Shown here: in pieces, positions 2,200 through 49,536 of the stretch
Position numbering within the stretch: the first letter of the stretch is position 1
Layout of the letters: each line of letters starts with the position of its first letter
Assembly: GCA_030697795.1 (NCBI GenBank)
Contig: JAUYOV010000004.1
Coordinates: 211,334-275,333, forward strand
DNA from: a bacterium
Lineage (GTDB): Bacteria > Patescibacteriota > Minisyncoccia > JACQLN01
Direction: 5' to 3'
DNA length: 64,000 bases
Translations under genes and position numbers: made by a program
The notes under the pieces: generated by a model
What the model saw: the letters and a program-made list of their open reading frames with translations, nothing else
The model's database searches: none
What the model was told of the DNA's origin: nothing

Positions 2200-2210
2200 A
2201 TTTTTTTAAA

Positions 2211-3200: not shown

Positions 3201-3367
3201 AAAATTACTTAGTTACTTAATTAGGTATTACTTATTTTACCTTAAGAAATCTTCATTGACAATGAAGCGTTTTTACTAGAAAATACCTAAATATTGGGCG
3301 ACCCGCCAAAGGCGGGTAAAGTGGCAGATTTAGTCGCCTTTGGCGACCGCACAAGACTCAAAATCAA

Positions 3368-3604
3368 ATGATATCTGTTTATGTAATTAGAAGTAAAAAT
3401 AAAAACTTTCGATATGTTGGCATAACAAATAACATAAATGAGAGATTGGAAAGACATAATACAGGCAAAAACAAATCGACAAGAAATTATGCTCCTTTTG
3501 TACTGACCTATTCAGAAAAATATAAAGACTATAAAGAAGCAAGGATGAGAGAAAAATTTTTAAAAAGCGGAGTTGGAAGAAAATTTTTAGATAGTTTACA
3601 ATAA
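3368..3604 (+). CDS. GIY-YIG domain protein (UPF0213-like small nuclease)
   Basis: ISVYVIRSKN..FRYVGITNNINERLERHN matches the GIY-YIG signature. 78 aa. Ends 8 nt before the tRNA-Leu gene. Confidence 0.6.
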   Translation: MISVYVIRSKNKNFRYVGITNNINERLERHNTGKNKSTRNYAPFVLTYSEKYKDYKEARMREKFLKSGVGRKFLDSLQ

Positions 3605-14690: not shown

Positions 14691-14707
14691 GTTTTTGAGA
14701 AAAAAAT

Positions 14708-14785
14708 ATCATTCCGAACAGCATTATGGAGAAGACTAATTTATAAATAAAGAGGCTCCATATCGTCTGTGAGGAATGATATTTT
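14708..14785 (+). repeat. About 78-bp structured repeat X, copy 1 (upstream of tatD)
   Basis: About 90% identical to 29077-29157. Nested inverted repeats (TCATTCC/GGAATGA; ATGGAG/CTCCAT). Confidence 0.8.
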
Positions 14786-14787
14786 TA

Positions 14788-18712: not shown

Positions 18713-19621
18713 TTAAAAATAGAATAGCAGTTTTTGTTTTATATTAAAACCCTTACAATGCCTCAAAACTCCCAAATACGAATCTACATTTTTCTCATTA
18801 ATCTTTCTTAACATCCTTCTTTTTGTTTTAGTCCTCAAAACCCTATGGTTAGGCAAAACCACATAACCCAGAAAATCTATACCCTGCCTGTATTTACGAA
18901 TAATTATTTTGTCTGGATGCAAAAATAGCTTTAGATTCTCAAAAAGAAAAGTATTAATTTTGTAAGACAGATTTAATAAATAATATTTATTACTTCCTAA
19001 AATAACAAAATCATCGCAGTAACGAATATAATACTTTTCTTTTAAGTTATGTTTAACAAATTGGTCTAATTCGTTTAAATAAATATTGGCAAATAACTGG
19101 CTGGTTACATTGCCTAAGGGTAACCCTTTGTTAAAACTACCTATTATTTTCTCAACCAACCATACAGCATTATCGTCTTTGATCTTTAGTTGAATCAATT
19201 TAATTAGAGCATCTTGATCTATGGAATCAAAAAACTTTTTAATATCACACTTTAAAGCAAAAATAGTTTGGCTATTGTTTTGGCTTAACTTACGACAAAA
19301 AGTTTCTAGTCTTGTTACTGCTTTGTGTGTTCCTTTGCCTATTCGGCAAGAATAAGAATCAAACATAAAATGTCTATCGAATATTGGATATAAAACTCTA
19401 AAAACAGCTTGATGTAAAACCCTGTCGCGTACACAAGCTTTATGGATATGACGCAATTTTGGGTCGGTAACATAAAAAGGAATATACTGGCTGTGTTTAT
19501 ATGTTTTATTTTTTAATTCGCTATGCAGTTGAAACAGATTATCTTCTAGGTTAAAATCAAATTCTTGAACATCCAACCTTTTTCTTTTGCCTTTTTTAAA
19601 TTCGCGCCAAGCTAAAAACAA
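18713..19621 (-). CDS. DGR reverse transcriptase (RT1)
   Basis: Matches DGR RTs along its length. N-terminal LAWREFKKGKR. Motif 4 is LGNVTSQLFANIYL, the I/LGxxxSQ DGR hallmark. YxDD motif is YCDD. Confidence 0.85.
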   Translation of the reverse strand: MFLAWREFKKGKRKRLDVQEFDFNLEDNLFQLHSELKNKTYKHSQYIPFYVTDPKLRHIHKACVRDRVLHQAVFRVLYPIFDRHFMFDSYSCRIGKGTHKAVTRLETFCRKLSQNNSQTIFALKCDIKKFFDSIDQDALIKLIQLKIKDDNAVWLVEKIIGSFNKGLPLGNVTSQLFANIYLNELDQFVKHNLKEKYYIRYCDDFVILGSNKYYLLNLSYKINTFLFENLKLFLHPDKIIIRKYRQGIDFLGYVVLPNHRVLRTKTKRRMLRKINEKNVDSYLGVLRHCKGFNIKQKLLFYF

Positions 19622-20024
19622 GTTTTCTAAGCTAATAATTTTTTTAAAAATATTATGGAAAATTTCTCCATTAAAGCCCCCCCCCTACGGAGTTGAAATA
19701 TCGCTGGTGCATAAAATTTGTGAATTGTATAAATTATTCCACGAATGTTTGAAAATATTTCCCAAGACGGAACGATTTACTTTGGGCCAAAAAATTGAGA
19801 ACACCATTCTAGAAATTTTAGAACTAATCCTTTCAGCCAGTTACCAATCAAAATATGGAAAAAGTGAAACCTTAATAAGAGGTAGCGATAAAAATGACCT
19901 TCTAAAGTATCTTATCCGTCTTGCTCACGATACCAAATCAATCAATATAAAAAAATATCTATTAGTTGAGGAAAAGGTTTTAGAAATAGGTCGTATGTTA
20001 GGTGGCTGGATAAAATCCAACTAA
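19587..20024 (+). CDS. avd: Avd-like accessory variability determinant (four-helix-bundle family); true start probably near 19709-19718
   Basis: Paralogous to the two other Avd-like ORFs and shares the C-terminal IGRMLGGWI motif. Alignment to those paralogs places the N-terminus near VHKICELYK. Confidence 0.7.
   Translation: MPFLNSRQAKNKFSKLIIFLKILWKISPLKPPPYGVEISLVHKICELYKLFHECLKIFPKTERFTLGQKIENTILEILELILSASYQSKYGKSETLIRGSDKNDLLKYLIRLAHDTKSINIKKYLLVEEKVLEIGRMLGGWIKSN
19677..19686. repeat. Homopolymer C10 in the divergent RT1/avd1 promoter region
   Basis: 10 consecutive C, 56 bp upstream of the RT1 start codon and about 25-30 bp upstream of the likely avd1 start. Confidence 0.9.
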
Positions 20025-20055
20025 ACTTTGCAAAGAGCGCCTAAAAAATAAGGCG
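20024..20055 (+). terminator. Intrinsic terminator after avd1 (AGAGCGCC-loop-GGCGCTCT followed by a T-run)
   Basis: 9-bp GC stem and U-tract. Lies between avd1 and TR1. Confidence 0.5.
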
Positions 20056-20180
20056 CTCTTTTGTTTGGAAACTACCAGAGGACGACCAGCTATGTTGTCG
20101 TTGCGATTGCTAGACCAATTGTAGTTGACGTTGGCTAGACCACCGTTCTCACGGTTACCACCGTAAAGCCGGCTGGAGTC
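20054..20180 (-). repeat. DGR template repeat TR1 (AAC-rich on the minus strand)
   Basis: About 127 nt, nearly identical to 20491-20618. All 8 differences are A in TR1 versus C/T/G in VR1. TR1 encodes GGNRENGGLANVNYNWSSNRNDNIAGRPLV. Confidence 0.85.
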
Positions 20181-20431
20181 CTCAAATTTTTGCTTTAAAC
20201 CGTCCATAATCACCGAAAATCTAAATATAAATTTTCTGAAATCCGCATCCCACGGATAGTTTTTTACTCGGCAACTCTTAAATAATCTAAGAATACCCGA
20301 TCTAGTTTAAAGCAAGGAGTTTCGTTATTTCCTGTTTTAAACAGGAGAGTAAATGCGAGAATAAACCTTAGTCTATTCTTCATTAGCTTTACTCAAGGAA
20401 AATTTTACCAAATTTGTGAAAATAAAAAAAT

Positions 20432-20451
20432 CCCCCAACTTACGTTGGGGG
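20432..20451 (-). promoter_or_regulatory. GC-rich hairpin (CCCCCAAC-GTAA-GTTGGGGG) about 40 bp downstream of VR1
   Basis: 8-bp stem with a GNRA-type loop on the target strand. Confidence 0.4.
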
Positions 20452-20486
20452 AAAATCCAAGGGCCAAAGCCCAAGGGGAAAAGAAC

Positions 20487-21320
20487 CTACTTTGCGAAAC
20501 TCACCAGAGGACGACCAGCTATGCTGCCGCTGCGATTGCTAGACCAATCGTAGTTGACGTAGGCTAGACCACCGTACTCACGGTGACCACCGTAAAGCCG
20601 GCTGGAGTCCTCAAACTTATCGTCGAACCACTCCCACATATTGAATCGGCCGCGATTGCTGTCGTAGAGATTGCCAATGGCATTGGACTCTACAGCCCGC
20701 TCCAACCGAACCTGTTCGGGTTTGAAACCGAATGCTTCGGCGATAGCAGGACAAACCACATCTCGCCATTCATCGTTGGTAATGGCAAAACGAGAGCCCG
20801 AAGGAGTATTATCGTGTTTGCCGATTTTTCCTTCTTCGCGCAATTTACTGATGATTAGCGCGAGAGGGTCATTGGAAAATACTTGCGTGCCGTCGGTGTA
20901 ATTCACACCGACGGTGAAATCAGCTAGATACCAACCTCTGTAGAGTTTGGCACTGTCGGGGGCGAGCTTGCCTTCCCCGATTTTCTGGTAGAACCATTTT
21001 TCAGGTTTTACCCAATTCTTGAGCTTGCAATTCTCGCCAATTCCTTCCATCGGCAGATATACCGGCCTGAAGTCGAACCCAGCCCACTTGGCCAAGTTCT
21101 CTTCGGTGAATTCGGGAGGCAGAGGATCAACATCCACACGGAAGAACTTTTGAAGCTTCTTCTGTGTTGCCTCCACTAAAGCTACCAGCAAAGACACTAT
21201 GCGATGTTCGTTGAAAGCTTTAACACTTTCCAAAGTGTGACTGCCGTCATCTATCTGACGGAAAAAATCTTTGAGCACGCCGGACCACGCCGACATCTCA
21301 CCGACTGGGGCATTAGCCAT
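20487..21320 (-). CDS. DGR target protein 1 (FGE/C-type-lectin-like C-terminal variable domain); GC-rich
   Basis: VR1 lies at the C-terminus. The pattern WEWFDD...RLYGG...GRPLV resembles FGE-type CLec folds. Strong SD AGGAGA upstream. Confidence 0.75.
   Translation of the reverse strand: MANAPVGEMSAWSGVLKDFFRQIDDGSHTLESVKAFNEHRIVSLLVALVEATQKKLQKFFRVDVDPLPPEFTEENLAKWAGFDFRPVYLPMEGIGENCKLKNWVKPEKWFYQKIGEGKLAPDSAKLYRGWYLADFTVGVNYTDGTQVFSNDPLALIISKLREEGKIGKHDNTPSGSRFAITNDEWRDVVCPAIAEAFGFKPEQVRLERAVESNAIGNLYDSNRGRFNMWEWFDDKFEDSSRLYGGHREYGGLAYVNYDWSSNRSGSIAGRPLVSFAK
20491..20618 (-). repeat. DGR variable repeat VR1 (3-prime end of target 1)
   Basis: Encodes GGHREYGGLAYVNYDWSSNRSGSIAGRPLV at the C-terminus of the 277-aa ORF. 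Confidence 0.85.
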
Positions 21321-25542: not shown

Positions 25543-25870
25543 ATAGATGAATTGTATCGTAACAAGAGAAAAATATCACGCTAAAGGAATGTTATAATAT
25601 TCATATCCTGCTAATGCAGTTTGAACCATGGTTCAAACTCGCGGGATATCTCATTTTTGCCTTTCCGCCAAAGCTTTACGGGCGGTAAAAGAATCGCCAG
25701 AGTATTAAACCTTACGGGGTTTAATAGCGTGCGAACTAAAATGGAGATGGAACTTCTTGCTTGTTTTTGGTGGAGATTCCGCCAAAGGCGGATGCTCCCA
25801 AGTAAAATTCAGGAAAGAAGAAACATAAATTTCATACTTTCCGGTGATATTGGATGGAAACAAGCAAAAT

Positions 25871-25992
25871 CTTGACTCCGATGGCAACCGCGTTAGCGTC
25901 GGCAACTTCGATCAGAACGGCCTCAACATCAACAACAACTGGGACGATAACCGCAACGACAATCTTGGCCTGGCCTCCTCTCGAACTTCCAT
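25871..25992 (+). repeat. DGR template repeat TR2 (AAC-rich on the plus strand, non-coding location)
   Basis: Matches the reverse complement of 27629-27749. Encodes VGNFDQNGLNINNNWDDNRNDNLGLASSR, versus VR2 VGDFDRFGLYFDYDHDDNRYDSLGLASSR. Confidence 0.75.
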
Positions 25993-26002
25993 CTGCAACC
26001 AT

Positions 26003-26026
26003 AAAACCCTCCTTTAGGAGGGTTTT
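26003..26026. terminator. Bidirectional hairpin AAAACCCTCC-TTTA-GGAGGGTTTT between TR2 and the avd2 stop
   Basis: 10-bp stem flanked by A/T runs on both sides. Confidence 0.5.
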
Positions 26027-26037
26027 ATGGTTTTGCA

Positions 26038-26388
26038 TCAATGAGTTTTTGACGAGCGGATCCAACCGCCTAACATCCGCCCTATCTCATTAACCATTTC
26101 CTGAATTAAAATATATTTTTTATTCTCTAAAACACCAATATCTTTAGCCAAGCGGACATAAACCCTAAAAAGATTGAGCTTAACACTAACTCTTTCTAAG
26201 TATGTTACTCTTTTGAGCTTATCCAAACTGCTTATTTCCAACAAATAGCCCAATATCTCAATCAAAATCAAATTGCATTTCTCGCCTAAAGAATACTTGT
26301 CTTGCTTGGGAAAACCTTTCAAACAAGCATAAAATTCTTTATATAAATCGTAGGTTTTTTTAAATAGCGGAATATCAAAACTATCCAT
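26038..26388 (-). CDS. avd: Avd-like accessory variability determinant (avd2)
   Basis: 116 aa. C-terminus EIGRMLGGWIRS. Paralog of avd1 and avd3. Start diverges from RT2 with a 2-nt overlap. Confidence 0.75.
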   Translation of the reverse strand: MDSFDIPLFKKTYDLYKEFYACLKGFPKQDKYSLGEKCNLILIEILGYLLEISSLDKLKRVTYLERVSVKLNLFRVYVRLAKDIGVLENKKYILIQEMVNEIGRMLGGWIRSSKTH

Positions 26389-27382
26389 GAAAATTTATCA
26401 AAATATATACGAACAAATAATCTCTGCCGAAAATTTGTTTCTAGCTTGGGCAGAATTCAAAAAAGATAAACAAAAAAGAAAAGACGTTATGCAATTTGAA
26501 TACAGGCTGGAAAAAAATATTTTAGGCTTGTGCCAAGAACTAAAAAATCAAACATATAAGCATAGTCCTTATAGTAATTTTTATATAACCGACCCCAAAC
26601 CCAGGCACATTCACAAAGCATTGGTTAGAGACAGAGTGGTGCACCATTCAGTTTTTAATATCCTTAATCCTGTTTTTGAAAAAACTTTTATCTTTAATTC
26701 TTATTCCTGCAGAAAAAACAAAGGCACTCACAAGGGCATAAACCAATTACACAAAATTTTAAGAAAAATAAGCCAAAACAATCATAAACCATGCTTTATA
26801 TTAAAATGCGATATTAAAAAATTCTTTCAATCAGTTAATCACGGTATTTTGTTAAATATTATTGATCGAAAAATATACGATGAAAAAGCATTGGCCTTAA
26901 TTAAAGAAATTGTAGAGAGTTTTAAACCCGGGTTGCCCATAGGCAACCTAACCAGCCAATTATTTGCCAATATTTATTTAAATAATCTGGACCAATATAT
27001 AAAGCACCATTTAAAAATTCCCTTTTATATAAGATATACCGATGATTTTGTGATTATTTATAACGATTTGGAAAAACTAAAACAGTGGCTTAGCCAGATT
27101 CAGGAATTTTTAAATGTAAACCTAAAACTACGTCTGCATCCCAATAAAGTTATTCTGCGCAAATATCATCAAGGAACTGATTTTTTGGGCTATGTGCAAT
27201 TTCCCCATTATTGTATTTTGCGCCCTAGAACCGAAAGAAGAATAATGAAAAGGATACAGCAGGGAGTTTCTGAACAATCGCTAAATTCATATCTAGGTGT
27301 GCTTTCTCATGCTAATAGTTATAAATTATCGGAAAAAATCAAAAACTTGTTTTGGTTTAATAAAAAAGAAAACCCGTCTTGA
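26387..27382 (+). CDS. DGR reverse transcriptase (RT2)
   Basis: IGNLTSQLFANIYLN (SQ motif); IRYTDDFV. Matches RT1 and RT3 along its length. Confidence 0.85.
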   Translation: MKIYQNIYEQIISAENLFLAWAEFKKDKQKRKDVMQFEYRLEKNILGLCQELKNQTYKHSPYSNFYITDPKPRHIHKALVRDRVVHHSVFNILNPVFEKTFIFNSYSCRKNKGTHKGINQLHKILRKISQNNHKPCFILKCDIKKFFQSVNHGILLNIIDRKIYDEKALALIKEIVESFKPGLPIGNLTSQLFANIYLNNLDQYIKHHLKIPFYIRYTDDFVIIYNDLEKLKQWLSQIQEFLNVNLKLRLHPNKVILRKYHQGTDFLGYVQFPHYCILRPRTERRIMKRIQQGVSEQSLNSYLGVLSHANSYKLSEKIKNLFWFNKKENPS

Positions 27383-27427
27383 TGGACGAGTTAAAAAATA
27401 ATTATAATTCCACAATTAAAAATTACG

Positions 27428-27463
27428 TTGGTTGGTTGGTTGGTTGGTTGGTTGGTTGGTTGG
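27428..27463. repeat. Microsatellite (TTGG)9
   Basis: Perfect tetranucleotide tandem repeat between the RT2 stop and the target 2 stop. Confidence 0.9.
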
Positions 27464-27567
27464 AATTGGAACTCTCTTTCATTATAAATTTAGTATAACA
27501 TAATTGGTTATAAAAAATTGAACCCTCGGATTTTCCGAAGGTTCAAGAAACAAAATTCAAAAGCCTG

Positions 27568-27597
27568 CCCCGCACCGAGCTACGCTCTGGTGCGGGG
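27568..27597 (-). promoter_or_regulatory. GC-rich hairpin (CCCCGCACC...GGTGCGGGG) about 30 bp downstream of VR2
   Basis: 9-bp perfect GC stem. Position is analogous to the hairpins after VR1 and VR3. Confidence 0.4.
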
Positions 27598-27622
27598 ATT
27601 CAATACTTCAAAACTCAACTCC

Positions 27623-28396
27623 CTATTTGGAACTTCGAGAGGAGGCCAGGCCAAGACTGTCGTAGCGGTTATCGTCATGGTCGTAGTCGAAGTAGAGGCC
27701 GAACCGATCGAAATCGCCGACGCCAACGCGGCTGCCATCGGAGTCAAGAGACGAAGTTCGGACATAGGTGTGTTCGAACAGTCGCTCACCAGTAGCCATG
27801 AAGTGGCCAATGATGGCGTAGACCACCACTTGCGCCTTCGGTGTTTCCTCGTCTTTGCCGAGTAGCTTCTGCTGATCATCCCAAGTCTTGGACGTGGAAT
27901 CCATAACCGGAGTTTTGCGGACGAGATGCCATCCGACTTCGCCCTTGTATTTGGCAAAAGTCTCCTTGTTGTACCAATCCTGTTCATAAAACAGGCGCTG
28001 ACCGTTGTTAGCGACCTTGCCTCGGATGTCCAGGATTGAGAGAGGAAAAATGGCGACAAGGGTATGCGTGTCTCTTGCCTCGGTAAGCTCGGCTTCAGTG
28101 AACGGAACTTCGGCCAAAGCCGAGATCTGCGCTCGCGTGGGCTTTACACCGAGATACTGAATCGCTTCCTCTACCCCAAACATGTTGCGCCCCATTATCT
28201 GATGGGCCGTTTTCTGCGAAGTGGTGGCTTCATAGCCGCCGTTGCTGATAAGCCTAACCACTTTCGTGGCAAGGTCATTGCCCTTGGAGCCTATGACTCT
28301 CTGGGCAAGTTCATCGTTGAGGCCAGCGGCCTCAAGTTTTAGGAGCACTTCATGCTCTTTGTGCACCGACAGAGTACGGCTCACGATGGTTTCCAT
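27623..28396 (-). CDS. DGR target protein 2 (C-terminal variable domain); GC-rich
   Basis: 257 aa. VR2 at the C-terminus. Strong SD GGAGGT upstream. Confidence 0.75.
   Translation of the reverse strand: METIVSRTLSVHKEHEVLLKLEAAGLNDELAQRVIGSKGNDLATKVVRLISNGGYEATTSQKTAHQIMGRNMFGVEEAIQYLGVKPTRAQISALAEVPFTEAELTEARDTHTLVAIFPLSILDIRGKVANNGQRLFYEQDWYNKETFAKYKGEVGWHLVRKTPVMDSTSKTWDDQQKLLGKDEETPKAQVVVYAIIGHFMATGERLFEHTYVRTSSLDSDGSRVGVGDFDRFGLYFDYDHDDNRYDSLGLASSRSSK
27629..27749 (-). repeat. DGR variable repeat VR2 (3-prime end of target 2)
   Basis: See TR2. About 13 mismatches at TR adenines. In addition, one codon differs at all three positions (TGG in TR, CAT in VR) and there is one C/T difference. 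Confidence 0.75.
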
Positions 28397-29038: not shown

Positions 29039-29076
29039 AAACGGTAAAAGTATAACATGTATCCTAAATTAAAATT

Positions 29077-29157
29077 ATCATCCCGAACAGCATTATGGAG
29101 AAGACTATCTTATATAAATAAAGAGGCTCCATATCGTCTGTGAGGGGTGATAATTTT
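29077..29157 (+). repeat. About 80-bp structured repeat X, copy 2 (upstream of recO-like, divergent from the GT39 gene)
   Basis: See copy 1. The outer stem shows a compensatory change (TT/AA to CC/GG). Confidence 0.8.
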
Positions 29158-29211
29158 TCTTAAAAACTTGCTGGCGAGCGAAAGAGCAATTTTTAAGCTA
29201 AACTATTAAAC

Positions 29212-34370: not shown

Positions 34371-37300
34371 TTAAATATTTTTAATCCCCACCCCGATTTC
34401 AAATCCTTCATAATTCCAAACTTTGTGGACCAAGAAATTTTCGTGTTCGGTTATGCCAAAGTTAATTTGTGTAGAACGAGTTTCGGCTTTTATAACTTGT
34501 TCCCAACGAGTTAATAATTCTTTAAAGTTGGCGTTTTGGTTAAGTTCGTAATGTAAAATTATTTTATCTTCTGGTGTTAATTTGGCTTCTTTTCGCATTT
34601 CGTTTATATTGCGAATCATTTCACGAACCATTCCTTCTTCCTTAAGCTCCGCCGTAAGTTCGGTATCCAAATTAACGTTGTTCTTTTCTATTTTTCTATC
34701 ACTTAAAACTTTTTTAACATTGAGTTCTTCGGCAACTATATATAGAACATCGCCAATTAAATTGTAATCAGCCGGTGAAACATATAAAGCATTTAAGGGC
34801 TGGCGTACGCGCAAACCCGCTTGAGCGCGCTCGGCAAGCCCCAGCGCCACAATTTCGCGGGCTCTATCCATGACTTTCGTAATATCGGAAGCCTTAACAG
34901 TTTTGGTATTTGGCCATTTTTCCAAATGAACCGACTCCCCAAACGCCGATAAACGCCGATTTTTATCCGCGCTGATCCGCGCTGATCCTTGCGTTAATCC
35001 GCGTAATTCTTGATAGAGCCATTCCGATATAAACGGCGCAAATGGCCCCATAACAACAGATACGCGTTTTAAAACTTCGGTTAAAGTATTTTGAGCCGAT
35101 AGTTTTTCGGCATCTATATTTTGCTTTTGGAACTTACGGCGGCTACGGCGTATATACCAATTAGAAAGTTCGTCTATAAAAGCTTCTATAGCACGCGAAG
35201 CGGAAGTAATGTCGTAGCTTTCTAAAAATTTATTTACTTCGAACTCCAACATTTCTGTTTTAATCAAAACCCATTTATCTAAAATATCTGTTTTGGCTAG
35301 TAAAGATTTCGGAGCTTCGGTGTAATAAGTTTCTAAAAACAAAAACGAATTAATTAAAGTATCGGCGAATCTACGTTTTTTAGATTCTATATCGCGCAAA
35401 CTAAAAAGTTTATTATCGCCCGGCGCGTTTACAGTGTAAAAATACCAACGCATCATATCGAACCCAACTTTCTCACCCACCAGCCAAGGGTCTACAATGT
35501 TCCCTTTAGACTTCGACATCTTCTCGCCCTTTTCATCTAGAACATGGTTTAAACTAATTACATTCTTATACGGATTACCTTCGCCTAAAGCGGTAGATAC
35601 CGCCATTAAAGTATAAAACCAGCCCCGGGTTTGATCGATCGCTTCGCAAATATAATCTGCTGGAAAATGGTCTTTCGGTAAATTTTTATTTTTTATATTT
35701 AAATTTTTCTTGTCCTTCGAAGCCTTGCTGTGCCACTCCGTAGCTTTGAGCGAAGGGTGGGCGTAGGAGGAAACTTGAGACGCCCACGGCATTGCACCCG
35801 AATCAAACCAAACATCGGCCAAGTCTTTTATACGTTCCATCTTCGAGGAACACATAGAACACTTAAGGAACACGCTATCGGCATAGGGGCGATGCAGGTT
35901 TAAATTGCCTTCTTCATCGTGGGGCCAGTTATTTGTTTCTACAAAAGTAAATTCGGCAGGGGACAAAGCTAGTTTAGAATCTTTAACTGCGTTTTGATAC
36001 AAAAGTTTTGTTTCGTCTTCGCCATAAATTCCATTAGATAATTGCATTAAAAATAAGGGGTCCATATGGCTTACCACAACCACCTTCTTGCCAGCGTGTT
36101 CTCTAGAAACATCCATCATAAATTCGCGCACCCGTTTGGCCACATCCAACCACGATTCGCCTGCCGGCGCGGGGCGAATAAATTTATCTTTAAAAGAATT
36201 AAAATATTTTTCATATTCCAAAAATGGCCCGCCATTAAACTCGCCAGTGTTTATTTCGCGTAAGCGTTCATCAAAAATTACTTCTTTTATTTTAAGTTCG
36301 TCCGCCAATATTTGAGCCGTCTCTCTGGCTCTTAATAGATCCGATGAATATATGGCCGATACCTTATTAGCCGCCAAAAGTTTTTTTATATTTTGGGCGG
36401 ATGCCTCTGCTTGTTTTCTACCCTTTTCGGTTAGGGGGTTTAAAATCTTTTCAGGGTAAGCACTGCAAATACCTTTAGCGTTAGATTCTGCTTCGCCATG
36501 GCGCATTAAAATTAAAGTGGTTGGAGAATCTAGGCGGTGTTCGTTAAGCTCGGCTAAAGAACCAATAACAGTTTTGTGTTCGCATTTGGTGCATGCCCAA
36601 ATTGGCAAGGGTGTTCCCCAATAGCGTTCGCGGCTTATAGCCCAGTCTTTAACCTCGCGTAACCATTCGCCAAACCGGCCATCTTTAATGTGTTCGGGCA
36701 CCCAATTAACTTTTTCGTTATTTTTAATTAGATCGTTTCTTAACGCCGACATTTTTATAAACCAACTTTCTTGGGCGTAATATAGTAAGGGCGATTTACA
36801 CCTCCAGCAAAAAGGATATTCGTGCTTATAGCTTGACTCATTAAACAGCAAATTTTGTTTTTTTAAGTAAAACAAAATCGTTTTTTCGGTTATGGGGTCT
36901 TTTTTGTTTTCACTAACAACAGCAAGCCCGCCTACTATAGGAACAGATTTTACAAAAACTCCTTCACGATTAACCGTGTGGAATTTAGGCAAATTTAATT
37001 TGGAACCGAGTTCAAAATCGTCGACGCCATACATTACGGCTGTATGCACAATGCCCGTACCATCTGCGGTAGTTACAAAATCGGCTTCGTAAACTCTGTA
37101 CGAATTTTCGGATTCCAACTCTTTAACAGCAAAAAGTGGTTCGTAAGAAAGTCTAGTAAGCTCGCTAGAAGTTAGTTCTTTATTTATTTTGTATTCTACT
37201 TTAGCCTCGCCAAAAACTTTAGGCGCTAAATCGCGAGCCAAAATATATTTTTCACCATTAGCTTCGACTTCTACATAGGTAACTTTCGGGCCAACAGCTA

Positions 37301-38003
37301 ACGCAACATTTCCCGGTAACGTCCAAGGCGTCGTGGTCCAAGCCAAAAGAAAAGTGTTTTCTCCGCCAGCTGGCGGATTTTTAACTTTAAATTTTATTAT
37401 GACCGACTTATCTGTAACTGTTTCGTAACCCTGCGCCACTTCGTGGCTGGAGATGGGCGTACCACACCTAACACAAAAAGGCACAACTTTATAATCTTTA
37501 ACTAAAAGTTTTTTATCGTAAATTCTTTTTATAATATTCCACAAACTTTCTATGTATTGCGGTTCGTAGGTTATGTATGGGTTTTTAAGGTCGAGCCAGT
37601 AACCCATGCGGCGCGTTAGCTTTTCCCATTCATCTTTATACTGCCAGACTGATATTTGGCATTCTTTATTAAATTGAGCGATGCCGTATTTTTCTACTTC
37701 GCGCTTATTTTTTAAACCTAATTTTTTTTCGACTTCAATTTCTACCGGCAAACCGTGTGTATCCCAACCAGCCCGACGCAAAACATAGCGCCCTTTCATT
37801 GTTTGAAAACGGCAAACAATATCTTTAAACGATCTAGCTAAAACATGATGGAGCCCTGGTTTACCGTTGGCCGTAGGCGGGCCTTCGTAAAATACGAAAG
37901 GTTTACCATCTTTAGTGGCTTTTAAAGTCTTTTCAAAAACATCGTTATCGTGCCAATGTTTTAAAACTTTTTCTTCTTCTTGGGGTAAATCAACGTGACG
38001 CAT
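34371..38003 (-). CDS. ileS: Isoleucyl-tRNA synthetase with an inserted histidine-phosphatase (PGAM-like) domain and repeat-derived in-frame inserts
   Basis: HIGH-type motif PPTANGKPGLHHV; KMSKS; editing domain. The insert LILMRHGEAESN...VVVSHMD (RHG and second His motifs) sits between WACTKCEH and LHRPYAD. Confidence 0.9.
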   Translation of the reverse strand: MRHVDLPQEEEKVLKHWHDNDVFEKTLKATKDGKPFVFYEGPPTANGKPGLHHVLARSFKDIVCRFQTMKGRYVLRRAGWDTHGLPVEIEVEKKLGLKNKREVEKYGIAQFNKECQISVWQYKDEWEKLTRRMGYWLDLKNPYITYEPQYIESLWNIIKRIYDKKLLVKDYKVVPFCVRCGTPISSHEVAQGYETVTDKSVIIKFKVKNPPAGGENTFLLAWTTTPWTLPGNVALAVGPKVTYVEVEANGEKYILARDLAPKVFGEAKVEYKINKELTSSELTRLSYEPLFAVKELESENSYRVYEADFVTTADGTGIVHTAVMYGVDDFELGSKLNLPKFHTVNREGVFVKSVPIVGGLAVVSENKKDPITEKTILFYLKKQNLLFNESSYKHEYPFCWRCKSPLLYYAQESWFIKMSALRNDLIKNNEKVNWVPEHIKDGRFGEWLREVKDWAISRERYWGTPLPIWACTKCEHKTVIGSLAELNEHRLDSPTTLILMRHGEAESNAKGICSAYPEKILNPLTEKGRKQAEASAQNIKKLLAANKVSAIYSSDLLRARETAQILADELKIKEVIFDERLREINTGEFNGGPFLEYEKYFNSFKDKFIRPAPAGESWLDVAKRVREFMMDVSREHAGKKVVVVSHMDPLFLMQLSNGIYGEDETKLLYQNAVKDSKLALSPAEFTFVETNNWPHDEEGNLNLHRPYADSVFLKCSMCSSKMERIKDLADVWFDSGAMPWASQVSSYAHPSLKATEWHSKASKDKKNLNIKNKNLPKDHFPADYICEAIDQTRGWFYTLMAVSTALGEGNPYKNVISLNHVLDEKGEKMSKSKGNIVDPWLVGEKVGFDMMRWYFYTVNAPGDNKLFSLRDIESKKRRFADTLINSFLFLETYYTEAPKSLLAKTDILDKWVLIKTEMLEFEVNKFLESYDITSASRAIEAFIDELSNWYIRRSRRKFQKQNIDAEKLSAQNTLTEVLKRVSVVMGPFAPFISEWLYQELRGLTQGSARISADKNRRLSAFGESVHLEKWPNTKTVKASDITKVMDRAREIVALGLAERAQAGLRVRQPLNALYVSPADYNLIGDVLYIVAEELNVKKVLSDRKIEKNNVNLDTELTAELKEEGMVREMIRNINEMRKEAKLTPEDKIILHYELNQNANFKELLTRWEQVIKAETRSTQINFGITEHENFLVHKVWNYEGFEIGVGIKNI
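34941..35009. repeat. ATCCGCG-unit repeat in frame inside ileS
   Basis: AAACGCCGATAAACGCCGAT...ATCCGCGCTGATCCGCGCTGATCC..TAATCCGCG. Confidence 0.7.
35714..35770. repeat. Small palindromic repeat family, copy in frame inside ileS
   Basis: CCTTCGAAGCC...CCGTAGCTTTGAGCGAAGGGTGGGCGTAGGAGG. Confidence 0.7.
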
Positions 38004-38022: not shown

Positions 38023-39018
38023 TTAAGCTAGCGGAAAATAAGACATTAGTAAAATATCGGTAATTCCATAAGTATTCCCATGCTTCAACAACCCCAAATA
38101 AGAACTTACCGTTTCTGGCTCTGGGTTCTCTCCAATTCTTTTCATCATCCGTTTTTTAGTAACTGTTCTTAAAACTTTATGATCTGTAAAATGAACCCAA
38201 CCCAAAAAATCCGCACCCGAAGCTAGAGTTTTGATAAAAACTTTGTCGGGGTGGAGTGTGAGTTTGAGATTTTTAATTAAAAATTCTTGAATCTTTGGGA
38301 TTAAGTTCTCTAACCATTCTTTGTCTTGCGATAAAACCACAAAATCATCGGGGTATCTAATGTAATACTTAACTTTTAATTTATGTTTAACAAACTGGTC
38401 AAACTTGTTCATATAGATATTCACCAAAAGCTGGGAGGTTAAATTGCCCAAGGGCAAACCAATATTGGGTTTTGTTTTAAAACTGGACACAACATTATTG
38501 AGTAACCAAATAATATTTTTGTCTGGTATATATTCAGTTAGTATCTCTAGCAAAACTTTGTGATGAATACTGGAAAAGAATTTTTTAATGTCGCATTTTA
38601 AGACCCAGCAAGTTTTAGTGTTATTTTGACCAACTTTGTAAGCAAAAGACTGAAAACGATTCAGGGCTTTATGCGTGCCTTTGTTCTTTCGGCAAGAAAA
38701 AGAATCGGCTATGAATGTTTTATCAAAGAAAGGGTAAAGAATATGATAAATTGCGTGGTGAAGTAGCCTATCCCGAACTGTGGCTTTATGTATGTTTCGG
38801 GGTTTGGGGTCGGAAATATTGAAAGCTTGGTAAATGCCATGCCGATAAGTGAAATTGACCAAGTCTTGGTTAAGTTGAAAAATATTATCCATTAAATTAA
38901 AGCCAAATTCCTGCACATCTTTTCTTTTTCTCTTGCCTTTGATAAACTCCTGCCAAGCCAATAACAAATTATCAACGCTAATAACATCTTCAAAACTATG
39001 GATCAATTGAGTTTTCAT
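38023..39018 (-). CDS. DGR reverse transcriptase (RT3)
   Basis: LGNLTSQLLVNIYMN (SQ motif); IRYPDDFV. Paralog of RT1 and RT2. Confidence 0.85.
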   Translation of the reverse strand: MKTQLIHSFEDVISVDNLLLAWQEFIKGKRKRKDVQEFGFNLMDNIFQLNQDLVNFTYRHGIYQAFNISDPKPRNIHKATVRDRLLHHAIYHILYPFFDKTFIADSFSCRKNKGTHKALNRFQSFAYKVGQNNTKTCWVLKCDIKKFFSSIHHKVLLEILTEYIPDKNIIWLLNNVVSSFKTKPNIGLPLGNLTSQLLVNIYMNKFDQFVKHKLKVKYYIRYPDDFVVLSQDKEWLENLIPKIQEFLIKNLKLTLHPDKVFIKTLASGADFLGWVHFTDHKVLRTVTKKRMMKRIGENPEPETVSSYLGLLKHGNTYGITDILLMSYFPLA

Positions 39019-39035
39019 AATTCTACATTAAGTAA

Positions 39036-39046
39036 CCCCCCCCCCC
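39036..39046. repeat. Homopolymer C11 in the 53-bp divergent RT3/avd3 intergenic region
   Basis: 11 consecutive C. A similar C10 tract at 19677-19686 sits between RT1 and avd1. Confidence 0.9.
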
Positions 39047-39071: not shown

Positions 39072-39443
39072 ATGAAAAATCTCTATTTTATCTGGTTTCA
39101 ATACTACCAGATTTTACCCAAAGCGCATCGCTACACGCTTGGCCGCAGAATTGACTCTATGTTTATTGAAATAGTTGAAGCGATAGTTACAGCGTCTTTT
39201 CTAACGCAAGAAAAGAAGCTCCCGTTTGTTCAGCACGCCCTTCGCAAAACAGACACGCTTAAAATCCTATTACAAGTATTATGGGAAACTAAATCTTTAG
39301 ATGATAAAAAATATATAGCCGTATCAAAACCTTTAGAAGAAATCGGCAAAATGCTGGGTGGCTGGAATGGCCAGCTTCAAAAACCCCTCGACATAGCTCG
39401 GGATAAAGAAAACTCTCCCCACAAAAAGCAGAGAGAGAAATAA
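39072..39443 (+). CDS. avd: Avd-like accessory variability determinant (avd3)
   Basis: 123 aa. C-terminal EEIGKMLGGW motif. Confidence 0.75.
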   Translation: MKNLYFIWFQYYQILPKAHRYTLGRRIDSMFIEIVEAIVTASFLTQEKKLPFVQHALRKTDTLKILLQVLWETKSLDDKKYIAVSKPLEEIGKMLGGWNGQLQKPLDIARDKENSPHKKQREK

Positions 39444-39447
39444 AGAA

Positions 39448-39573
39448 AGTTGCGAGCACGGCCGAAGGATTGTTGGCATTCCAGTCGTTCTCAAGCCAGT
39501 TGTAGTTCCAGTCCCACTCACCATCGTTCCAGTAGAGATAAAGAACGTTGCGGTTGCCATTCGGACTGCGAAT
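39448..39573 (-). repeat. DGR template repeat TR3
   Basis: Encodes RSPNGNRNVLYLYWNDGEWDWNYNWLENDWNANNPSAVLA. Begins 5 nt after the avd3 stop. Confidence 0.85.
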
Positions 39574-39824
39574 ATATTGTATAAAGCGCCACCTATGCCA
39601 CCACCCCTTGAATACTCTTAGGGTTGTATCGTATTTGGTATCTAAAATACCCTAGCGCTATATACCGAGTATCTTCATTTTTTTAAGCTTCCATAAACCA
39701 CCCTATTCCCAACCGTAATCGGGAATACTCTCGATTTATGGTTACTGGCTTCGGTAGCAGGCAACCTTAATCGCCCGCGTATTCACCTAATACCATTTGC
39801 ATAATAACATTTTGCAAAAGAAAA

Positions 39825-39851
39825 TTCCCTACGACATTACGTCGTAGGGAA
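39825..39851 (-). promoter_or_regulatory. Hairpin TTCCCTACGAC-loop-GTCGTAGGGAA about 54 bp downstream of VR3
   Basis: 11-bp stem. Confidence 0.4.
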
Positions 39852-39902
39852 TTTAGAGTACAAAGTCCAAAGGATCTAAAAGTTCTAGAATTCTAAGGAC
39901 TA

Positions 39903-40547
39903 TTAACTCGCGAGCACGGCCGAAGGATCGTAGGCACTCCAGCCGCCCTCAAGCCAGCGGCAGTACCAGCCCCACCCACCACCGCCCCAGCAGAGACAAA
40001 GAACGTAGCGGCGGCCAAGCGGACCGCGAAGGGTGGTGCCGTCAAAGGAAATGAAGGTGGTATTGCTGTTCGTTTTTTCTTTCCAACTTTCGGGAATAAG
40101 ACTCTTGTTTTCCCAGAGAGTTTGGAAGATTTTGGCATCTAGGCGGACGTAATTTTTGGCTTTGAGGCGCTTCAGTTTCTCTTCACCTTTGATGACACTC
40201 TCGTCTTCTTTGAGGCAAGTGACTAACTGGATGTTGGAGAGGTCTAGCTCGGTGAGGTTGAGAGAGCGCTCATCCTGTTCTTCCTCGCCCGAGAGACCAT
40301 CGCCATCTGCTGGACCTTTCCAGATGCTCCAACCTTCGCCCAAAAACTGGGCGGGGTTGAAGGGTTGGGTGCGGTTGATTTTTAAGACCGTATCTCCAAA
40401 ACGCCCCTCCACCGCATTCTGCAAATAGCGTTGGAGTTTTGCCGGATCGTAGGGATAACCCTTGGGCTGACGAAGCTGTCGGCCAATTTCAAAAAGCTGG
40501 CCAGTGATGCTTTCGTACAGTTCGCCTGCGACACTAGGATGTGCCAT
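39903..40547 (-). CDS. DGR target protein 3 (C-terminal variable domain); GC-rich
   Basis: 214 aa. VR3 at the C-terminus. Confidence 0.8.
   Translation of the reverse strand: MAHPSVAGELYESITGQLFEIGRQLRQPKGYPYDPAKLQRYLQNAVEGRFGDTVLKINRTQPFNPAQFLGEGWSIWKGPADGDGLSGEEEQDERSLNLTELDLSNIQLVTCLKEDESVIKGEEKLKRLKAKNYVRLDAKIFQTLWENKSLIPESWKEKTNSNTTFISFDGTTLRGPLGRRYVLCLCWGGGGWGWYCRWLEGGWSAYDPSAVLAS
39905..40030 (-). repeat. DGR variable repeat VR3 (3-prime end of target 3)
   Basis: Encodes RGPLGRRYVLCLCWGGGGWGWYCRWLEGGWSAYDPSAVLA. 24 substitutions relative to TR3, all at TR adenines. Confidence 0.85.
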
Positions 40548-40754
40548 GACGATAATCCTTTCTTTATTTGGCTATCTAAGATGCCGGACATCTGCCGGAG
40601 CCCCAGATAAACCAGTTATTAAGGTACAATACAAGTGTAGCAGATAGTCAAATGGAAGTCAAGAGTGCACTATTGGAAGGATTCGTGAGCATTTTTTCAG
40701 CTTAATTTTAAATACAAATAATACCCAACGGTAACCTGTGTTAAACTAAAATCA

Positions 40755-41195
40755 ATGGAGGCCAAAACAAACAAAAAGGCGTTTTTTAATTACGAAATCC
40801 TAGAAAAGTTCGAGGCGGGTTTGGTGTTGCTTGGAGGCGAAGTTAAATCTATAAGAAATAATCATTACAGTTTACAAGGCGCATACATAACAGTAGAAGA
40901 TGAAGAGGCTTGGTTAGTGAAAGCCATGATCGCCCCTTACCAGCCTAAAAATATGAGCGGGCAGTATAACCCCGAACGCAAGCGCAAACTTTTACTTAAC
41001 AAAAAAGAACTCCAGTATTTACAAGGAAAAACAAAGGAAAAAGGCTTGACTATTGTGCCTCTAAAAGTTTACAATAAGCACGGTCAAATCAAGTTAGAAA
41101 TTGCTTTAGCCAAAGGTAAAAGCAAGGGCGATAAGAGAGAAGTTCTTAAAAAACGTATCGCCGACCGAGATATCGCCAGAGAACTTAAATCTTGA
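40755..41195 (+). CDS. smpB: SsrA-binding protein
   Basis: Matches SmpB along its length (FFNYEILEKFEAGLVLLGGEVKSIR...). Confidence 0.9.
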   Translation: MEAKTNKKAFFNYEILEKFEAGLVLLGGEVKSIRNNHYSLQGAYITVEDEEAWLVKAMIAPYQPKNMSGQYNPERKRKLLLNKKELQYLQGKTKEKGLTIVPLKVYNKHGQIKLEIALAKGKSKGDKREVLKKRIADRDIARELKS

Positions 41196-41260: not shown

Positions 41261-41620
41261 CGGGGATGACATGAATCGACAAGGAACGTATCGATAAGAA
41301 TTCGAAGCTGAGGTAGACCACAAACTCATAAAACTGGTTACAAATAGTAAGTGCAAACTTATTTAGCGCTAATAAACCAGCGTTTGCTGTAGCTTAAAAT
41401 CTATCAGCCATCGCCCTGTTTTCGCCCGAGTAAACAGTGTGCGGTGCCAACCTTTCGGGCCGCTCTTTCAGGCCAGGCGAACTTGAAAGCTAAGACAACG
41501 CCAAAAGTTTAATTTTTTTCACCATTCTTTAAGGGTTAAACTTAAATTAAGAATGGTTAGGCTTCGTACTAGTTCAATCGAGAAATTTTTTGTACGCGGG
41601 TTCAATTCCCGCCATCTCCA
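41261..41620 (+). ncRNA. ssrA: tmRNA (ssrA)
   Basis: 5-prime end GGGGATGACATGAATCGACAAGG matches the canonical GGGGnTGAnnnnGAnTCGACnGG. 3-prime tRNA-like end GTACGCGGGTTCAATTCCCGCCATCTCCA has a T-arm and a 7-bp acceptor stem pairing with the 5-prime end. Immediately downstream of smpB. Tag ORF ends ...PAFAVA-stop. Confidence 0.8.
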
Positions 41621-41710
41621 CTGCTACGCCAAGGCTACGCAGTGCACGCACCAATCTAAACAAGACATGCTATATTAATTGAACGATCTTGTTAGATTAG
41701 AATAGTAGCA

Positions 41711-47773: not shown

Positions 47774-49536
47774 TTTTTTAAAAATCCCAACATCTTCTCT
47801 AATGGCCAAGCATTCACGATGTCCGACTTCGTGGTCCAAGCACGCCTGGCTTGCGCAATGCCAAGTTCTAAATATTTAAAGTGATCCGTATGATGCGCAT
47901 CAGAATCTATAGACAATTTTACCCCTTCTGCTAAAGCCATTCTTATATGCTCATCTTTTAAATCCAGCCTATCGGCAAAAGCGTCTATTTCTAAAACTGT
48001 GCCCGTTCTTTTAGCGGCCTTGACGATCTCCACCATATCAACTTCGTAAGCTGGGCGTTTATTAATAATTCGGCCTGTTGGATGAAAAAGAATATCTACA
48101 TTTGGGTTTTCCATCGCCTTAATTATTCTTTTGGTTTGCTCGGCTTTTGGTAGGTTAAATAACGAATGCACCGCCACACCAACAATATCTAACTTGGCTA
48201 AAGTTTTGTCGTCTATATCCAGCGAACCGTCTTTTAATATATTAACCTCTGCTCCCTTTAGAACTCGTAGCTTACGACTTTTAGCTTTTAGCTTATAGTT
48301 AATTTCGTCAATCGCAGACATTTGCTTTTCTAATTTTTTCTCGTCTGATCCGCCTGTCATAGCAAGGGATTTTGTATGATCGGTTATTAAAATATATTCT
48401 AAACCCATCTTCATAGCCGCTTCTGCCATTTCTTCTATTGTGTTTTCGCCATCGGTCCAAGTAGTTTGAATCTGCAAGTCTCCCTTCAAGTCATTGTACC
48501 CAATGAGTTTTGGTAATATATGATTTTGAGCGGCTTCAATCTCGCCTGATAATGTTCGGAGTTCAGGTTCAATATAATCCAAGCCAAGTTTATTATATAT
48601 TTCCTCCTCGGTTTTACCAGCAATCATAACCTCTTTCCGCGTAAATCCGCGTTTTGATCCGCGCCTTTCCGCGACCTTAAAGAGGCCGTATTCGTTTAAT
48701 TTATATCCTTTATCTATAGCAATCTTTCGCAATTCAACATTATGGTTTTTGTCTCCGGTAAAATACTGGGCGGCCGCCCCAAAACTTTCGGGGACCACCA
48801 CGCGTAAATCCATTTCTAAACCATTTCTTAATTTAACCACACTTTTAGTTTCGCCTTTCGCCACCACTCGCCCAACTTCGGGCATTTTAATAAAAAGATC
48901 CATAACTTCTTTTGGTTTTTTAGAAGTTATTAAAATATCTATATCGCCCACAGTTTCCTGCATTCGGCGGGCCGAACCGCATAATAAAACTTTTTCTGTA
49001 TATTGGCTTTTTTCTAAGCGTGAAATTATTTCCCTAATTTCCGGCAAAACAAAACCCAAAACATAGCGGTAGATATGTTTTTTAACAAATTCTAAACCTT
49101 TTAAAATTTTCTCTTCGGACTTTTCGCCAAACCCCTCTAGACTTTTTATTAAACCCGCCTTCGCCGCCTTCTCTAAATCGCCTAATGTCCTAATTCCTAG
49201 CTTCTTATATAGCTTATAAACTCCTTTCGGCCCAACACCCTCCACACTGGTTAAACCTTCTATATCTACCGGAATTTTCTTTTTTAAAGCTAAGTGTTCC
49301 TTTATTTTTTTTGTTTTTATATATTCCTCTATCATTTCCGACATGCTTTTGCCTACACCCTGAATTTCTTCTAAAGCTTTGGTTCCGCCTCTTTTGTATA
49401 TATCTTTTAAGTCTTCGCCTAGGTTTTCTATATTCGTGGCCGCGCGTTCAAAAGCCTGTGGCTTAAAAGCCACCTCTTGCATAGCAAACAATATAGAGAT
49501 TTCTTTAAATATCTTGGCGATTTCTTGGTTTATCAT
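47770..49536 (-). CDS. polX: DNA polymerase X family protein with C-terminal PHP phosphoesterase domain
   Basis: HhH N-terminus; Pol-beta nucleotidyltransferase motif LCGSARR...GDIDILI; PHP His/Asp motifs (HTDHT, HH). Confidence 0.85.
   Translation of the reverse strand: MINQEIAKIFKEISILFAMQEVAFKPQAFERAATNIENLGEDLKDIYKRGGTKALEEIQGVGKSMSEMIEEYIKTKKIKEHLALKKKIPVDIEGLTSVEGVGPKGVYKLYKKLGIRTLGDLEKAAKAGLIKSLEGFGEKSEEKILKGLEFVKKHIYRYVLGFVLPEIREIISRLEKSQYTEKVLLCGSARRMQETVGDIDILITSKKPKEVMDLFIKMPEVGRVVAKGETKSVVKLRNGLEMDLRVVVPESFGAAAQYFTGDKNHNVELRKIAIDKGYKLNEYGLFKVAERRGSKRGFTRKEVMIAGKTEEEIYNKLGLDYIEPELRTLSGEIEAAQNHILPKLIGYNDLKGDLQIQTTWTDGENTIEEMAEAAMKMGLEYILITDHTKSLAMTGGSDEKKLEKQMSAIDEINYKLKAKSRKLRVLKGAEVNILKDGSLDIDDKTLAKLDIVGVAVHSLFNLPKAEQTKRIIKAMENPNVDILFHPTGRIINKRPAYEVDMVEIVKAAKRTGTVLEIDAFADRLDLKDEHIRMALAEGVKLSIDSDAHHTDHFKYLELGIAQARRAWTTKSDIVNAWPLEKMLGFLKK
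48637..48676. repeat. ATCCGCG-unit repeat in frame inside polX
   Basis: CCGCGTAAATCCGCGTTTTGATCCGCGCCTTTCCGCG. Confidence 0.7.

Follow-up and report, generated by a model that had tools for sequence, protein, structure and literature searches.

The diversity-generating retroelement (DGR) of Bordetella phage BPP-1, with the gene order mtd-avd-TR-brt, transfers sequence with adenine-specific changes from an AAY-rich template repeat (TR) to a variable repeat (VR) at the 3' end of its target gene. To our knowledge, no DGR other than that of the Bordetella phage has had its reverse transcription dissected, and the RNA elements required there lie 3' of the TR, with the exception of a 20-nucleotide (nt) upstream segment. 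Surveys of other DGRs examined the flanks of the TR over 40 nt on the 5' side and 100 nt on the 3' side. The DGRs of the candidate phyla radiation (CPR, or Patescibacteria) have no spacer between the TR and the reverse transcriptase (RT) gene. In both BPP-1 and the retrons, the cDNA is primed from an internal 2'-OH beside a duplex that closes the template loop. Here, we describe a locus, called DGR3, in a 64,000-nt stretch of patescibacterial DNA (contig JAUYOV010000004.1, positions 211,334 to 275,333; hereafter the window, in whose coordinates all positions are given). Segment 38023–40662 is very probably a complete chromosomal DGR of the Patescibacteria clade, with the B3 architecture: target/VR, TR, avd on the opposite strand, and RT. 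Its TR is preceded by a structured leader RNA that appears to belong to an undescribed family.

In Bordetella, the 2'-OH of A56 in the spacer (Sp) RNA primes cDNA synthesis, beside a duplex that Sp forms with the 3' end of the TR (TR:Sp), and synthesis stops before an avd:Sp duplex located just upstream of the TR; an Avd-binding stem-loop immediately follows the TR, and RT-binding structures are found further 3' (Handa et al., 10.1101/2023.10.23.563531). In CPR, the TR-(avd)-RT arrangement, termed architecture B3, represents 90% of the DGR set of Wu et al. (2018; PMC5758913), and a clade of cellular DGRs (clade 2) is restricted to Patescibacteria (Roux et al., 2021; PMC8144416). As far as the accessible parts of these two descriptions go, DGR3 shares with these elements its gene order and orientation, host group, chromosomal location, presence of several DGRs per genome, and a target without known domains. 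The same parts are silent on a structured RNA upstream of the TR, on a dedicated promoter or terminator, and on a G-tract between avd and RT; the VR class of DGR3 could be one of the unassigned classes UVR1-6.

The TR and VR of DGR3, whose sense strand is the minus strand, align without gaps over 126 nt at an offset of 458 (TR 39447–39572, VR 39905–40030), with 25 mismatches (80% identity). Twenty-four of these mismatches fall at a T of the plus strand, that is, an A of the sense strand; the remaining one, a C>G change at a position without adenine (TR 39449, VR 39907), lies three bases short of the 3' end. In the 123-nt core (TR 39450–39572, encoding RSPNGNRNVLYLYWNDGEWDWNYNWLENDWNANNPSAVLA; VR 39908–40030, encoding RGPLGRRYVLCLCWGGGGWGWYCRWLEGGWSAYDPSAVLA as residues 174–213 of the target), all 24 mismatches lie on the 31 adenines of the TR (hypergeometric P=1.3e-19), in the form of 17 A>G, 4 A>T, and 3 A>C substitutions. 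An earlier note on this DNA, prepared from the sequence alone, had already reported the repeat pair and had quoted both peptides correctly; it also had the VR end 2 nt before the stop codon of the target (TAA, 39903–39905), which is true of the VR core. However, the alignment that it proposed as a check, which yielded the ungapped match at offset 458, showed that its TR was one base out of register, since 39448–39573 against 39905–40030 gives 92 mismatches. Likewise, its claim that every difference lies at a TR adenine stands for the core (24/24) but not for the full 126-nt span, which contains the extra C>G.

This additional difference directly follows a GC-rich block of 17 nt, CCTTCGGCCGTGCTCGC, which is identical in the VR and the TR at their 3' ends. 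The arrangement resembles that of BPP-1, in which an identical GC-rich block is followed by a fixed non-A difference that distinguishes IMH from IMH* (initiation of mutagenic homing). A C/G difference near the 3' end is also present in related loci in which this end is readable (e.g., L007, L008, L010, and L015), and because of this recurrence it looks like the IMH*/IMH boundary. With respect to the coding frame, 12 of the TR adenines are at codon position 1, 18 at position 2, and one at position 3 (30/31 at positions 1-2). The TR contains 10 AAY codons, and no adenine substitution in it leads to a stop codon; approximately 1.5e17 peptides are reachable across the repeat. In the nine TR/VR pairs of the DGR3 lineage, 64% of the TR adenines are changed and 70% of the 178 changes are A>G, a spectrum that sets DGR3 apart from BPP-1. 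Because A>G predominates, the VR displays changes such as AAC>GGC, GAC>GGC, and TAC>TGC, and its richness in Gly, Cys, and Arg is thus mostly a mutational signature. The Trp codon, TGG, has no adenine and hence is immutable by this mechanism. The Gly-rich variable loop highlighted by the earlier note is therefore a real enrichment, but one that largely reflects A>G mutation, and its Trp residues are merely immutable.

The genes that accompany the repeats are those expected of a DGR. RT3 (38023–39018, minus strand, 331 aa) matches the Pfam family RVT_1 (E=5.9e-26), and its best match in PDB is the Bordetella phage bRT (8ub7, E=2.2e-37), to which it is alignable nearly end to end (residues 10–296), SQ motif included. 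The DGR-specific motif [LIV]GxxxSQ is present as LGNLTSQ. At its catalytic box, RT3 has the sequence YPDD, with the Pro encoded by CCC (38350–38352); related RTs have YADD (25/26) or YSDD (1/26), and the other two RTs of the window have YCDD (RT1) and YTDD (RT2). The accessory gene avd (39072–39443, plus strand, 123 aa) matches Pfam bAvd PF22296 (E=5e-11; 43.5 bits against a cut-off of 40 bits). It lies on the other strand from the TR and RT, in convergent orientation to the TR RNA, and ends 6 nt before the TR core; the Avd homologues of related loci have the same position and orientation. The order TR (39572–39450, minus), avd (39072–39443, plus), and RT (39018–38023, minus) is that of architecture B3. 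BPP-1 also has Avd, but in DGR3 the avd gene is encoded on the opposite strand, and the TR and RT are not separated by a spacer. All open reading frames (ORFs) of DGR3 are intact and full length. The identification as a DGR, which the earlier note had advanced, is thus borne out by adenine-specific mismatches, an adjoining bRT-like RT with LGNLTSQ, an Avd, and a layout that recurs elsewhere. DGR3 has every defining DGR property that was looked for, and its architecture and host clade are already catalogued.

The target gene (39903–40547, minus strand, 214 aa) carries the VR at its 3' end. It is on record as the hypothetical protein Q8Q95_02395 of an NCBI metagenome-assembled genome, and its protein cluster comprises one member on one contig. 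Homologues number 609 at E<=1e-3, and those with a named host are almost all from Parcubacteria/Patescibacteria. No match was obtained in Pfam, NCBIfam, PDB sequences (phmmer), or PDB profiles. In an alignment of 56 members, the conserved core of the family spans approximately residues 55–173. In the C-terminal 40 residues of the same members, mean entropy is 2.63 bits at the 19 A-templated positions, defined by the A-bearing codons of the DGR3 TR, and 0.65 bits at the 21 A-free positions (Mann-Whitney P=9e-8); diversification at A-templated positions is therefore a trait of the family. The AlphaFold2 model built from the alignment has a mean confidence score (pLDDT) of 88, exceeding 90 from residue 55 onward. 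In its predicted beta-hairpin (residues 180–198), the variable residues (184, 186, 188 / 191, 193, 195, 197) alternate with the invariant L183, L185, W187, W192, W194, and W198, which fits one variable face over a fixed hydrophobic core. These two results uphold the earlier description of a variable surface on an invariant, W-spaced scaffold. The fold that the note assigned to the target, of C-type-lectin-like (CLec) type, fared less well: the structure prediction that it called for gave a confident model, but matches to CLec domains are weak and a Foldseek search of PDB returned nothing with E<1. A CLec-like fold is thus likely rather than established, and we infer that the target may be a ligand-binding protein with a divergent fold of this type. 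Known DGR variable proteins of the CLec fold are Mtd (1yu0), TvpA (2y3c), the archaeal AvpA, and TaqVP of Thermus. No signal peptide or transmembrane segment is apparent by eye, no predictor having been used. DGR3 is cellular, unlike the phage-borne BPP-1 element, and its 214-aa target, with no signal peptide visible to the eye, is not a tail fibre.

A search with a 16-sequence target alignment identified 27 genomic loci that encode relatives of the target (designated here by L numbers). Five of them (L005, L008, L010, L015, and L021) have a full set of TR, avd, and RT downstream of the target, and two more (L007 and L012) have TR and avd, the RT being missing at the contig end. In six of these seven, all TR/VR mismatches but one are at adenines; in L012, the proportion is 22/27. 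The leader match described below is kept in L013, which has a TR but no detectable avd or RT, and in L018, where again neither avd nor RT is detectable. About half of the target-family loci have no RT within 5 kb (L001, L004, L014, L016, L019, L022-L024, and L028 are solo), which suggests solo targets, targets served in trans, or decayed cassettes. A paralogue of the target, P0003 (Q8Q95_00765), is found on another contig of the same genome.

The 330-nt gap between the VR and the TR is organized in the same manner in the nine loci aligned: a terminator hairpin, a promoter, then 220-280 nt of conserved sequence broken by variable insertions. The hairpin (39822–39854, minus strand) has 15 pairs followed by a U-run, and hairpins occupy the equivalent place in related loci. 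It lies 49 nt past the stop codon of the target, further away than in BPP-1, and is terminator-like; it might in addition correspond to the inverted repeat that follows the VR in other DGRs. The putative promoter of the TR RNA is an extended -10 element, TGTTATTAT (39801–39809, minus strand). Of 47 loci, 31 have the motif TGnTAnnWT at exactly this position, and a -10-like hexamer takes its place in most of the remainder. Next comes the leader (39573–39800, minus strand, about 228 nt), with elements P1/P2 (39794-39747), P3 (39740-39692), a conserved single strand AAAUGAAGA (39680-39672), and P4 (39665-39654 paired with 39590-39579), which encloses P5 (39651-39637) and P6 (39624-39603). P4 ends 6 nt before the start of the TR/VR homology.

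Comparative analysis supports this structure. RNAalifold, applied to a MAFFT alignment of the nine loci, predicted 57 pairs, 31 of which show compensatory changes. A covariance model, R1, was then built following a pattern scan of metagenome contigs, in which part of the leader motif was fixed and the tail was left free; it yielded 51 copies. In the R1 alignment, 95.7% of cells are paired, compared with 35-53% when partners are slid by 1-3 columns, two-sided changes are seen in 50 of the 57 pairs, and none of 500 shuffles reaches the observed values. This alignment was fitted to the model, with which the independent MAFFT/RNAalifold result is concordant, and R1 E-values are rough, their calibration having been shortened. 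At the gathering threshold, an Rfam 15 scan of the window returned only a transfer-messenger RNA (tmRNA) and one tRNA, with no leader family; at E<=10, a scan of 39380–39920 returned no RT-associated family (RT-1 to RT-19), including RT-10, the Sp motif of BPP-1. We are confident that the leader is a genuine structured part of the DGR template RNA. Neither this RNA, its promoter and terminator, the loop-closing helix presented below, nor a permuted DGR RNA was described in Rfam or in the literature searched, a search that did not extend to the CPR survey of Paul et al. 2017 or to the supplements of Wu et al.

At the other end of the TR, the tail UCUUUAUUU (39438–39446, minus strand) is complementary to leader positions 39680-39672 and would form the 3' strand of a long-range helix. 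Directly 3' of it is a 10-bp hairpin (39437-39413) with a U-run (39412-39409), terminator-like in our scan. Both of them overlap the end of the convergent avd gene, within its final codons and its stop codon. Nearly all related loci have the 3' hairpin, followed by a conserved U-run, UUUUGUUUU, and four of seven stem pairs, the inner ones, covary. The hairpin is reminiscent both of intrinsic terminators and of the Avd-binding stem-loops described for other DGRs. The complementarity of leader and tail was detected by an anchored analysis, a naive search being confounded by the U-run, and a shuffle test for contiguous helices missed the DGR3 helix owing to a G-U pair. In an unbiased alignment of 22 full-length DGR3-type RNAs, RNAalifold paired the leader strand AAAUGAAGA with the tail UCUUCAUUU, adjoining the 3' hairpin. 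This helix is 97% paired and nearly invariant in the DGR3 lineage, its one variable position being GC in 15 RNAs, GU in 4, AU in 2, and AC in 1.

Further evidence comes from the two other complete TR-(avd)-RT DGRs of the window (18713-21320 and 25653-28396), both within 22 kb of DGR3. In DGR1 (RT 18713-19621, minus strand; TR 20074-20189; VR 20503-20618), 8/8 TR/VR mismatches are at A. In DGR2 (TR 25870-25991, plus; avd 26038-26388, minus; RT 26387-27382, plus; VR 27628-27749, minus), the figure is 13/18, and the five non-A mismatches indicate some drift. Their targets differ from that of DGR3 (277 and 257 aa, without Pfam match). In a plain three-way alignment, the regions upstream of the three TRs show little similarity, and homology is seen only with the covariance model run without filters: R1 then gives weak matches, end to end and ending at the TR, upstream of TR2 (25653-25882, plus strand, E=8e-8) and of TR1 (20400-20176, minus strand, E=2e-4). 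More generally, all eight DGR2-type loci retrieved through homologues of RT2 have an R1 match (26-43 bits) directly upstream of the TR, and RT2 homologues number more than 7,000 at E<=1e-40. In this second lineage, RNAalifold finds a 14-bp helix of different sequence, GAGAUGGAACUUCU:GAACUUCCAUCUC, at the equivalent place, directly 5' of P4 and with the end of the TR as its 3' strand. Thus, in both lineages the predicted helix has one strand immediately 5' of P4 and the other at the 3' end of the TR or directly after it, and the DGR2-type helix is comparative support for the long-range helix. One DGR2-type locus, L155, has its leader-TR-(avd) module (1727-3484) inverted relative to the RT gene, with TR and RT on opposite strands; the TR RNA is therefore not co-transcribed with the RT but forms a transcription unit of its own.

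These features suggest how DGR3 might work. A non-coding RNA of about 395 nt would be produced from the extended -10 promoter and would comprise the leader (about 230 nt), the 123-nt TR, a short tail, and the terminal hairpin. RT and Avd would copy the TR into cDNA, misincorporating opposite adenines with mostly A>G outcomes, and the cDNA would take the place of its homologue, the VR that ends the gene of the 214-aa target. As a result, 19 codons would be randomized on one face of the C-terminal beta-hairpin and in loops, while the Trp/Leu scaffold would stay fixed. Given P4 and the long-range helix, the TR would be a loop between two helices; the pairing of AAAUGAAGA with UCUUUAUUU, together with P4, would clamp this loop and set the start and stop of the cDNA, the long-range helix positioning the priming nucleotide.

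In this arrangement, the hairpin 3' of the TR and the duplexes at both TR ends parallel three elements of BPP-1: the Avd stem-loop, the TR:Sp primer duplex, and the avd:Sp (cPRT) stop duplex. DGR3 differs from BPP-1 in its large structured RNA 5' of the TR, which has its own promoter, apparently ends right after the TR, and does not match the Rfam RT-10 family. By analogy, we infer that the leader may be the functional counterpart of the Bordetella Sp RNA, moved from the 3' to the 5' side of the TR. CPR-type (B3) DGRs would then use a circularly permuted DGR RNA, a proposal that we hold to be about as likely true as false; it is an analogy of topology, homology being undemonstrated. The permuted order would be a primer-like strand, the 5' strand of the P4 stop duplex, P5, an A-rich strand, P6, the 3' strand of P4, the TR, a primer-binding tail, and an Avd-stem-loop-like hairpin, with P1-P3 as an extra 5' domain. 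Such an RNA would explain why avd lies antisense right after the TR, as well as the inversion of leader-TR-(avd) relative to RT. The msr/msd RNA of retrons is likewise a structured non-coding RNA beside an RT. DGR3 is distinguished from retrons by its DGR-type RT and by a template that is a protein-coding repeat with a VR partner, and no multicopy single-stranded DNA or effector gene is implied.

Several observations weigh against this model. The YPDD box of RT3, compared with YADD in 25/26 relatives, makes present-day activity uncertain: it may be a single-base difference that impairs the enzyme, or an assembly error (GCC to CCC). The locus L055, 91% identical to DGR3 in leader and TR and including the end of avd, has no VR in the 362 nt that it covers upstream of the leader. 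In addition, a Logan contig with an RT identical to RT2 (L159) ends 74 nt after the RT, before VR2; contig breaks near hypervariable regions could explain both ends, although they do not by themselves count as evidence. In the DGR3 lineage, the long-range helix changes on both sides at a single position only and contains a few A-C mismatches, and its 3' strand overlaps the avd stop codon (39441-39443), a possible partial cause of its conservation; covariation alone is therefore no proof of the helix. The DGR2 helix, when allowed anywhere in the leader, is not significant alone in a shuffle test (50/500). The ends of the RNA are placed from promoter and terminator consensus signals. Lastly, the target lacks an apparent signal peptide.

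Some of these points could be accommodated by other explanations. That the repeats arose by ordinary duplication or gene conversion, with a coincidental adenine pattern, would agree with a 126-nt repeat at 80% identity and with nothing more; given P=1.3e-19, the adjacent RT and Avd, and the same pattern in eight other loci, it is extremely improbable. Chance repeats were ruled out by the same statistic (P=1e-19). DGR3 could also be a fossil, in which the VR was diversified in the past and is now frozen, inactivated by the Pro of the RT3 YXDD box. This is what the near-universal YADD of related RTs (YSDD in the 26th) would suggest, and the target protein cluster, with its single member on one contig, has no population variants on record. 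We nevertheless find a fossil improbable: all ORFs are intact and full length; the core TR and VR have no non-adenine mismatch, hence no drift since the last homing, whereas 5 of the 18 mismatches of DGR2 are of this kind; the X position of the box is tolerant, being A, S, C, or T in sister RTs; and the Pro codon could come from the single-base assembly error mentioned above. The preferred reading of the locus as a complete DGR is thus retained.

A different alternative concerns the RNA: the leader would be real but would serve either for regulation in cis at the 5' end or as an independent small RNA, with priming and RT binding assigned to elements downstream of the TR, in read-through antisense to avd, and the post-TR hairpin would be an Avd-binding stem-loop only. 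The sparse covariation of the long-range helix in the DGR3 lineage leaves room for this, and stem-loops of about 9 bp with tetraloops were found just downstream of the TR in 207 DGRs, including those of CPR, and were read as Avd-binding (Handa et al., 10.1101/2023.10.23.563531). However, the conserved U-run UUUUGUUUU after the hairpin is typical of intrinsic terminators, the sequence past the hairpin is avd coding sequence on the other strand, and the leader-TR-(avd) module is inverted relative to RT in L155. Moreover, the leader always abuts the TR, P4 ends 6 nt before the homology, and two lineages have a complementary helix, of different sequence, at the other end. This alternative is accordingly judged unlikely, and a leader that serves as scaffold for the TR is preferred. 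Other classes of element were also considered. A phage-borne DGR was ruled out by the neighbouring genes, which encode isoleucyl-tRNA synthetase (IleRS), SmpB, tmRNA, translation initiation factor IF-3, ribosomal proteins L35 and L20, and RecO; the element is therefore chromosomal. The locus has a TR/VR pair and an RT closest to bRT, which rules out a retron or group II intron.

Two further sequence features recur with DGRs of this type. The 53-nt intergenic region between the divergent RT and avd genes contains a C11 homopolymer (39036–39046; G11 on the RT strand). In the whole 64-kb window, the only other C/G run of at least 8 is C9 (19677-19685), which adjoins RT1 and lies within the listed avd1 ORF. 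Tracts of G8-G11 are present at the equivalent place in L005, L008, L010, L015 (C9G9), and L021, approximately 20-25 nt upstream of the RT start. Because its length varies, this conserved tract may mediate phase variation of RT and/or avd expression by slipped-strand mispairing. The second feature is an array of short CTT(N)WG-like motifs (39857–39902, minus strand) between the stop codon of the target and the terminator. These motifs occur at 3.8 per 70 nt in 22 family loci, both DGR-linked and solo, compared with 0.5 in shuffles and 0.42 window-wide. The array, of 50-70 nt, is at the same position in L001 and L004-L024, and a similar CTTGG/CTTTGG array is found at the DGR1 target; a role of the array in recognition of the target during homing is conceivable.

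Upstream of the target gene is a promoter-like site (TTGACT-17-TACACT with TG, 40634–40662, minus strand), which is a consensus match only. Beyond it are SmpB (40755-41195, plus strand) and a full-length tmRNA (41262-41623, plus strand, 105 bits). On the other side of DGR3, the IleRS match of the IleRS gene (34371-38003, minus strand, 1210 aa) is broken in two by the insertion, at about residues 490-655, of a histidine-phosphatase (PGAM-like) domain; in L151, an IleRS of similar kind, carrying His_Phos_1, is encoded beside the DGR. Elsewhere in the window, two copies of an imperfect palindrome of about 85 nt (14702-14789 and 29071-29160) are 85-92% identical, with fold z-scores of -5 to -7 on either strand. 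They differ by stem-preserving base changes and each lies just upstream of a minus-strand gene; they may represent a repetitive extragenic palindrome or miniature inverted-repeat transposable element (REP/MITE-like), or a small RNA. Short tandem repeats of the TCCGCG(T/C)T(G/A)A type (12958-13020, 34966-35006, and 48636-48676) are all inside long minus-strand ORFs, one of which is the IleRS gene.

As far as the TR/VR pair is concerned, DGR3 is one more DGR of Patescibacteria, with an unannotated target family of more than 600 members, which is useful for annotation and unsurprising. The leader, with its own promoter and terminator and a loop-closing helix, provides a testable model of how cDNA synthesis is primed in the DGRs of CPR. 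Judging from the number of RT matches, this RNA family may accompany thousands of Patescibacteria DGRs. If the model is true, the compact RNA module of about 400 nt would be usable in engineered DGR mutagenesis, and the leader would represent a natural permutation experiment on the DGR RNA.

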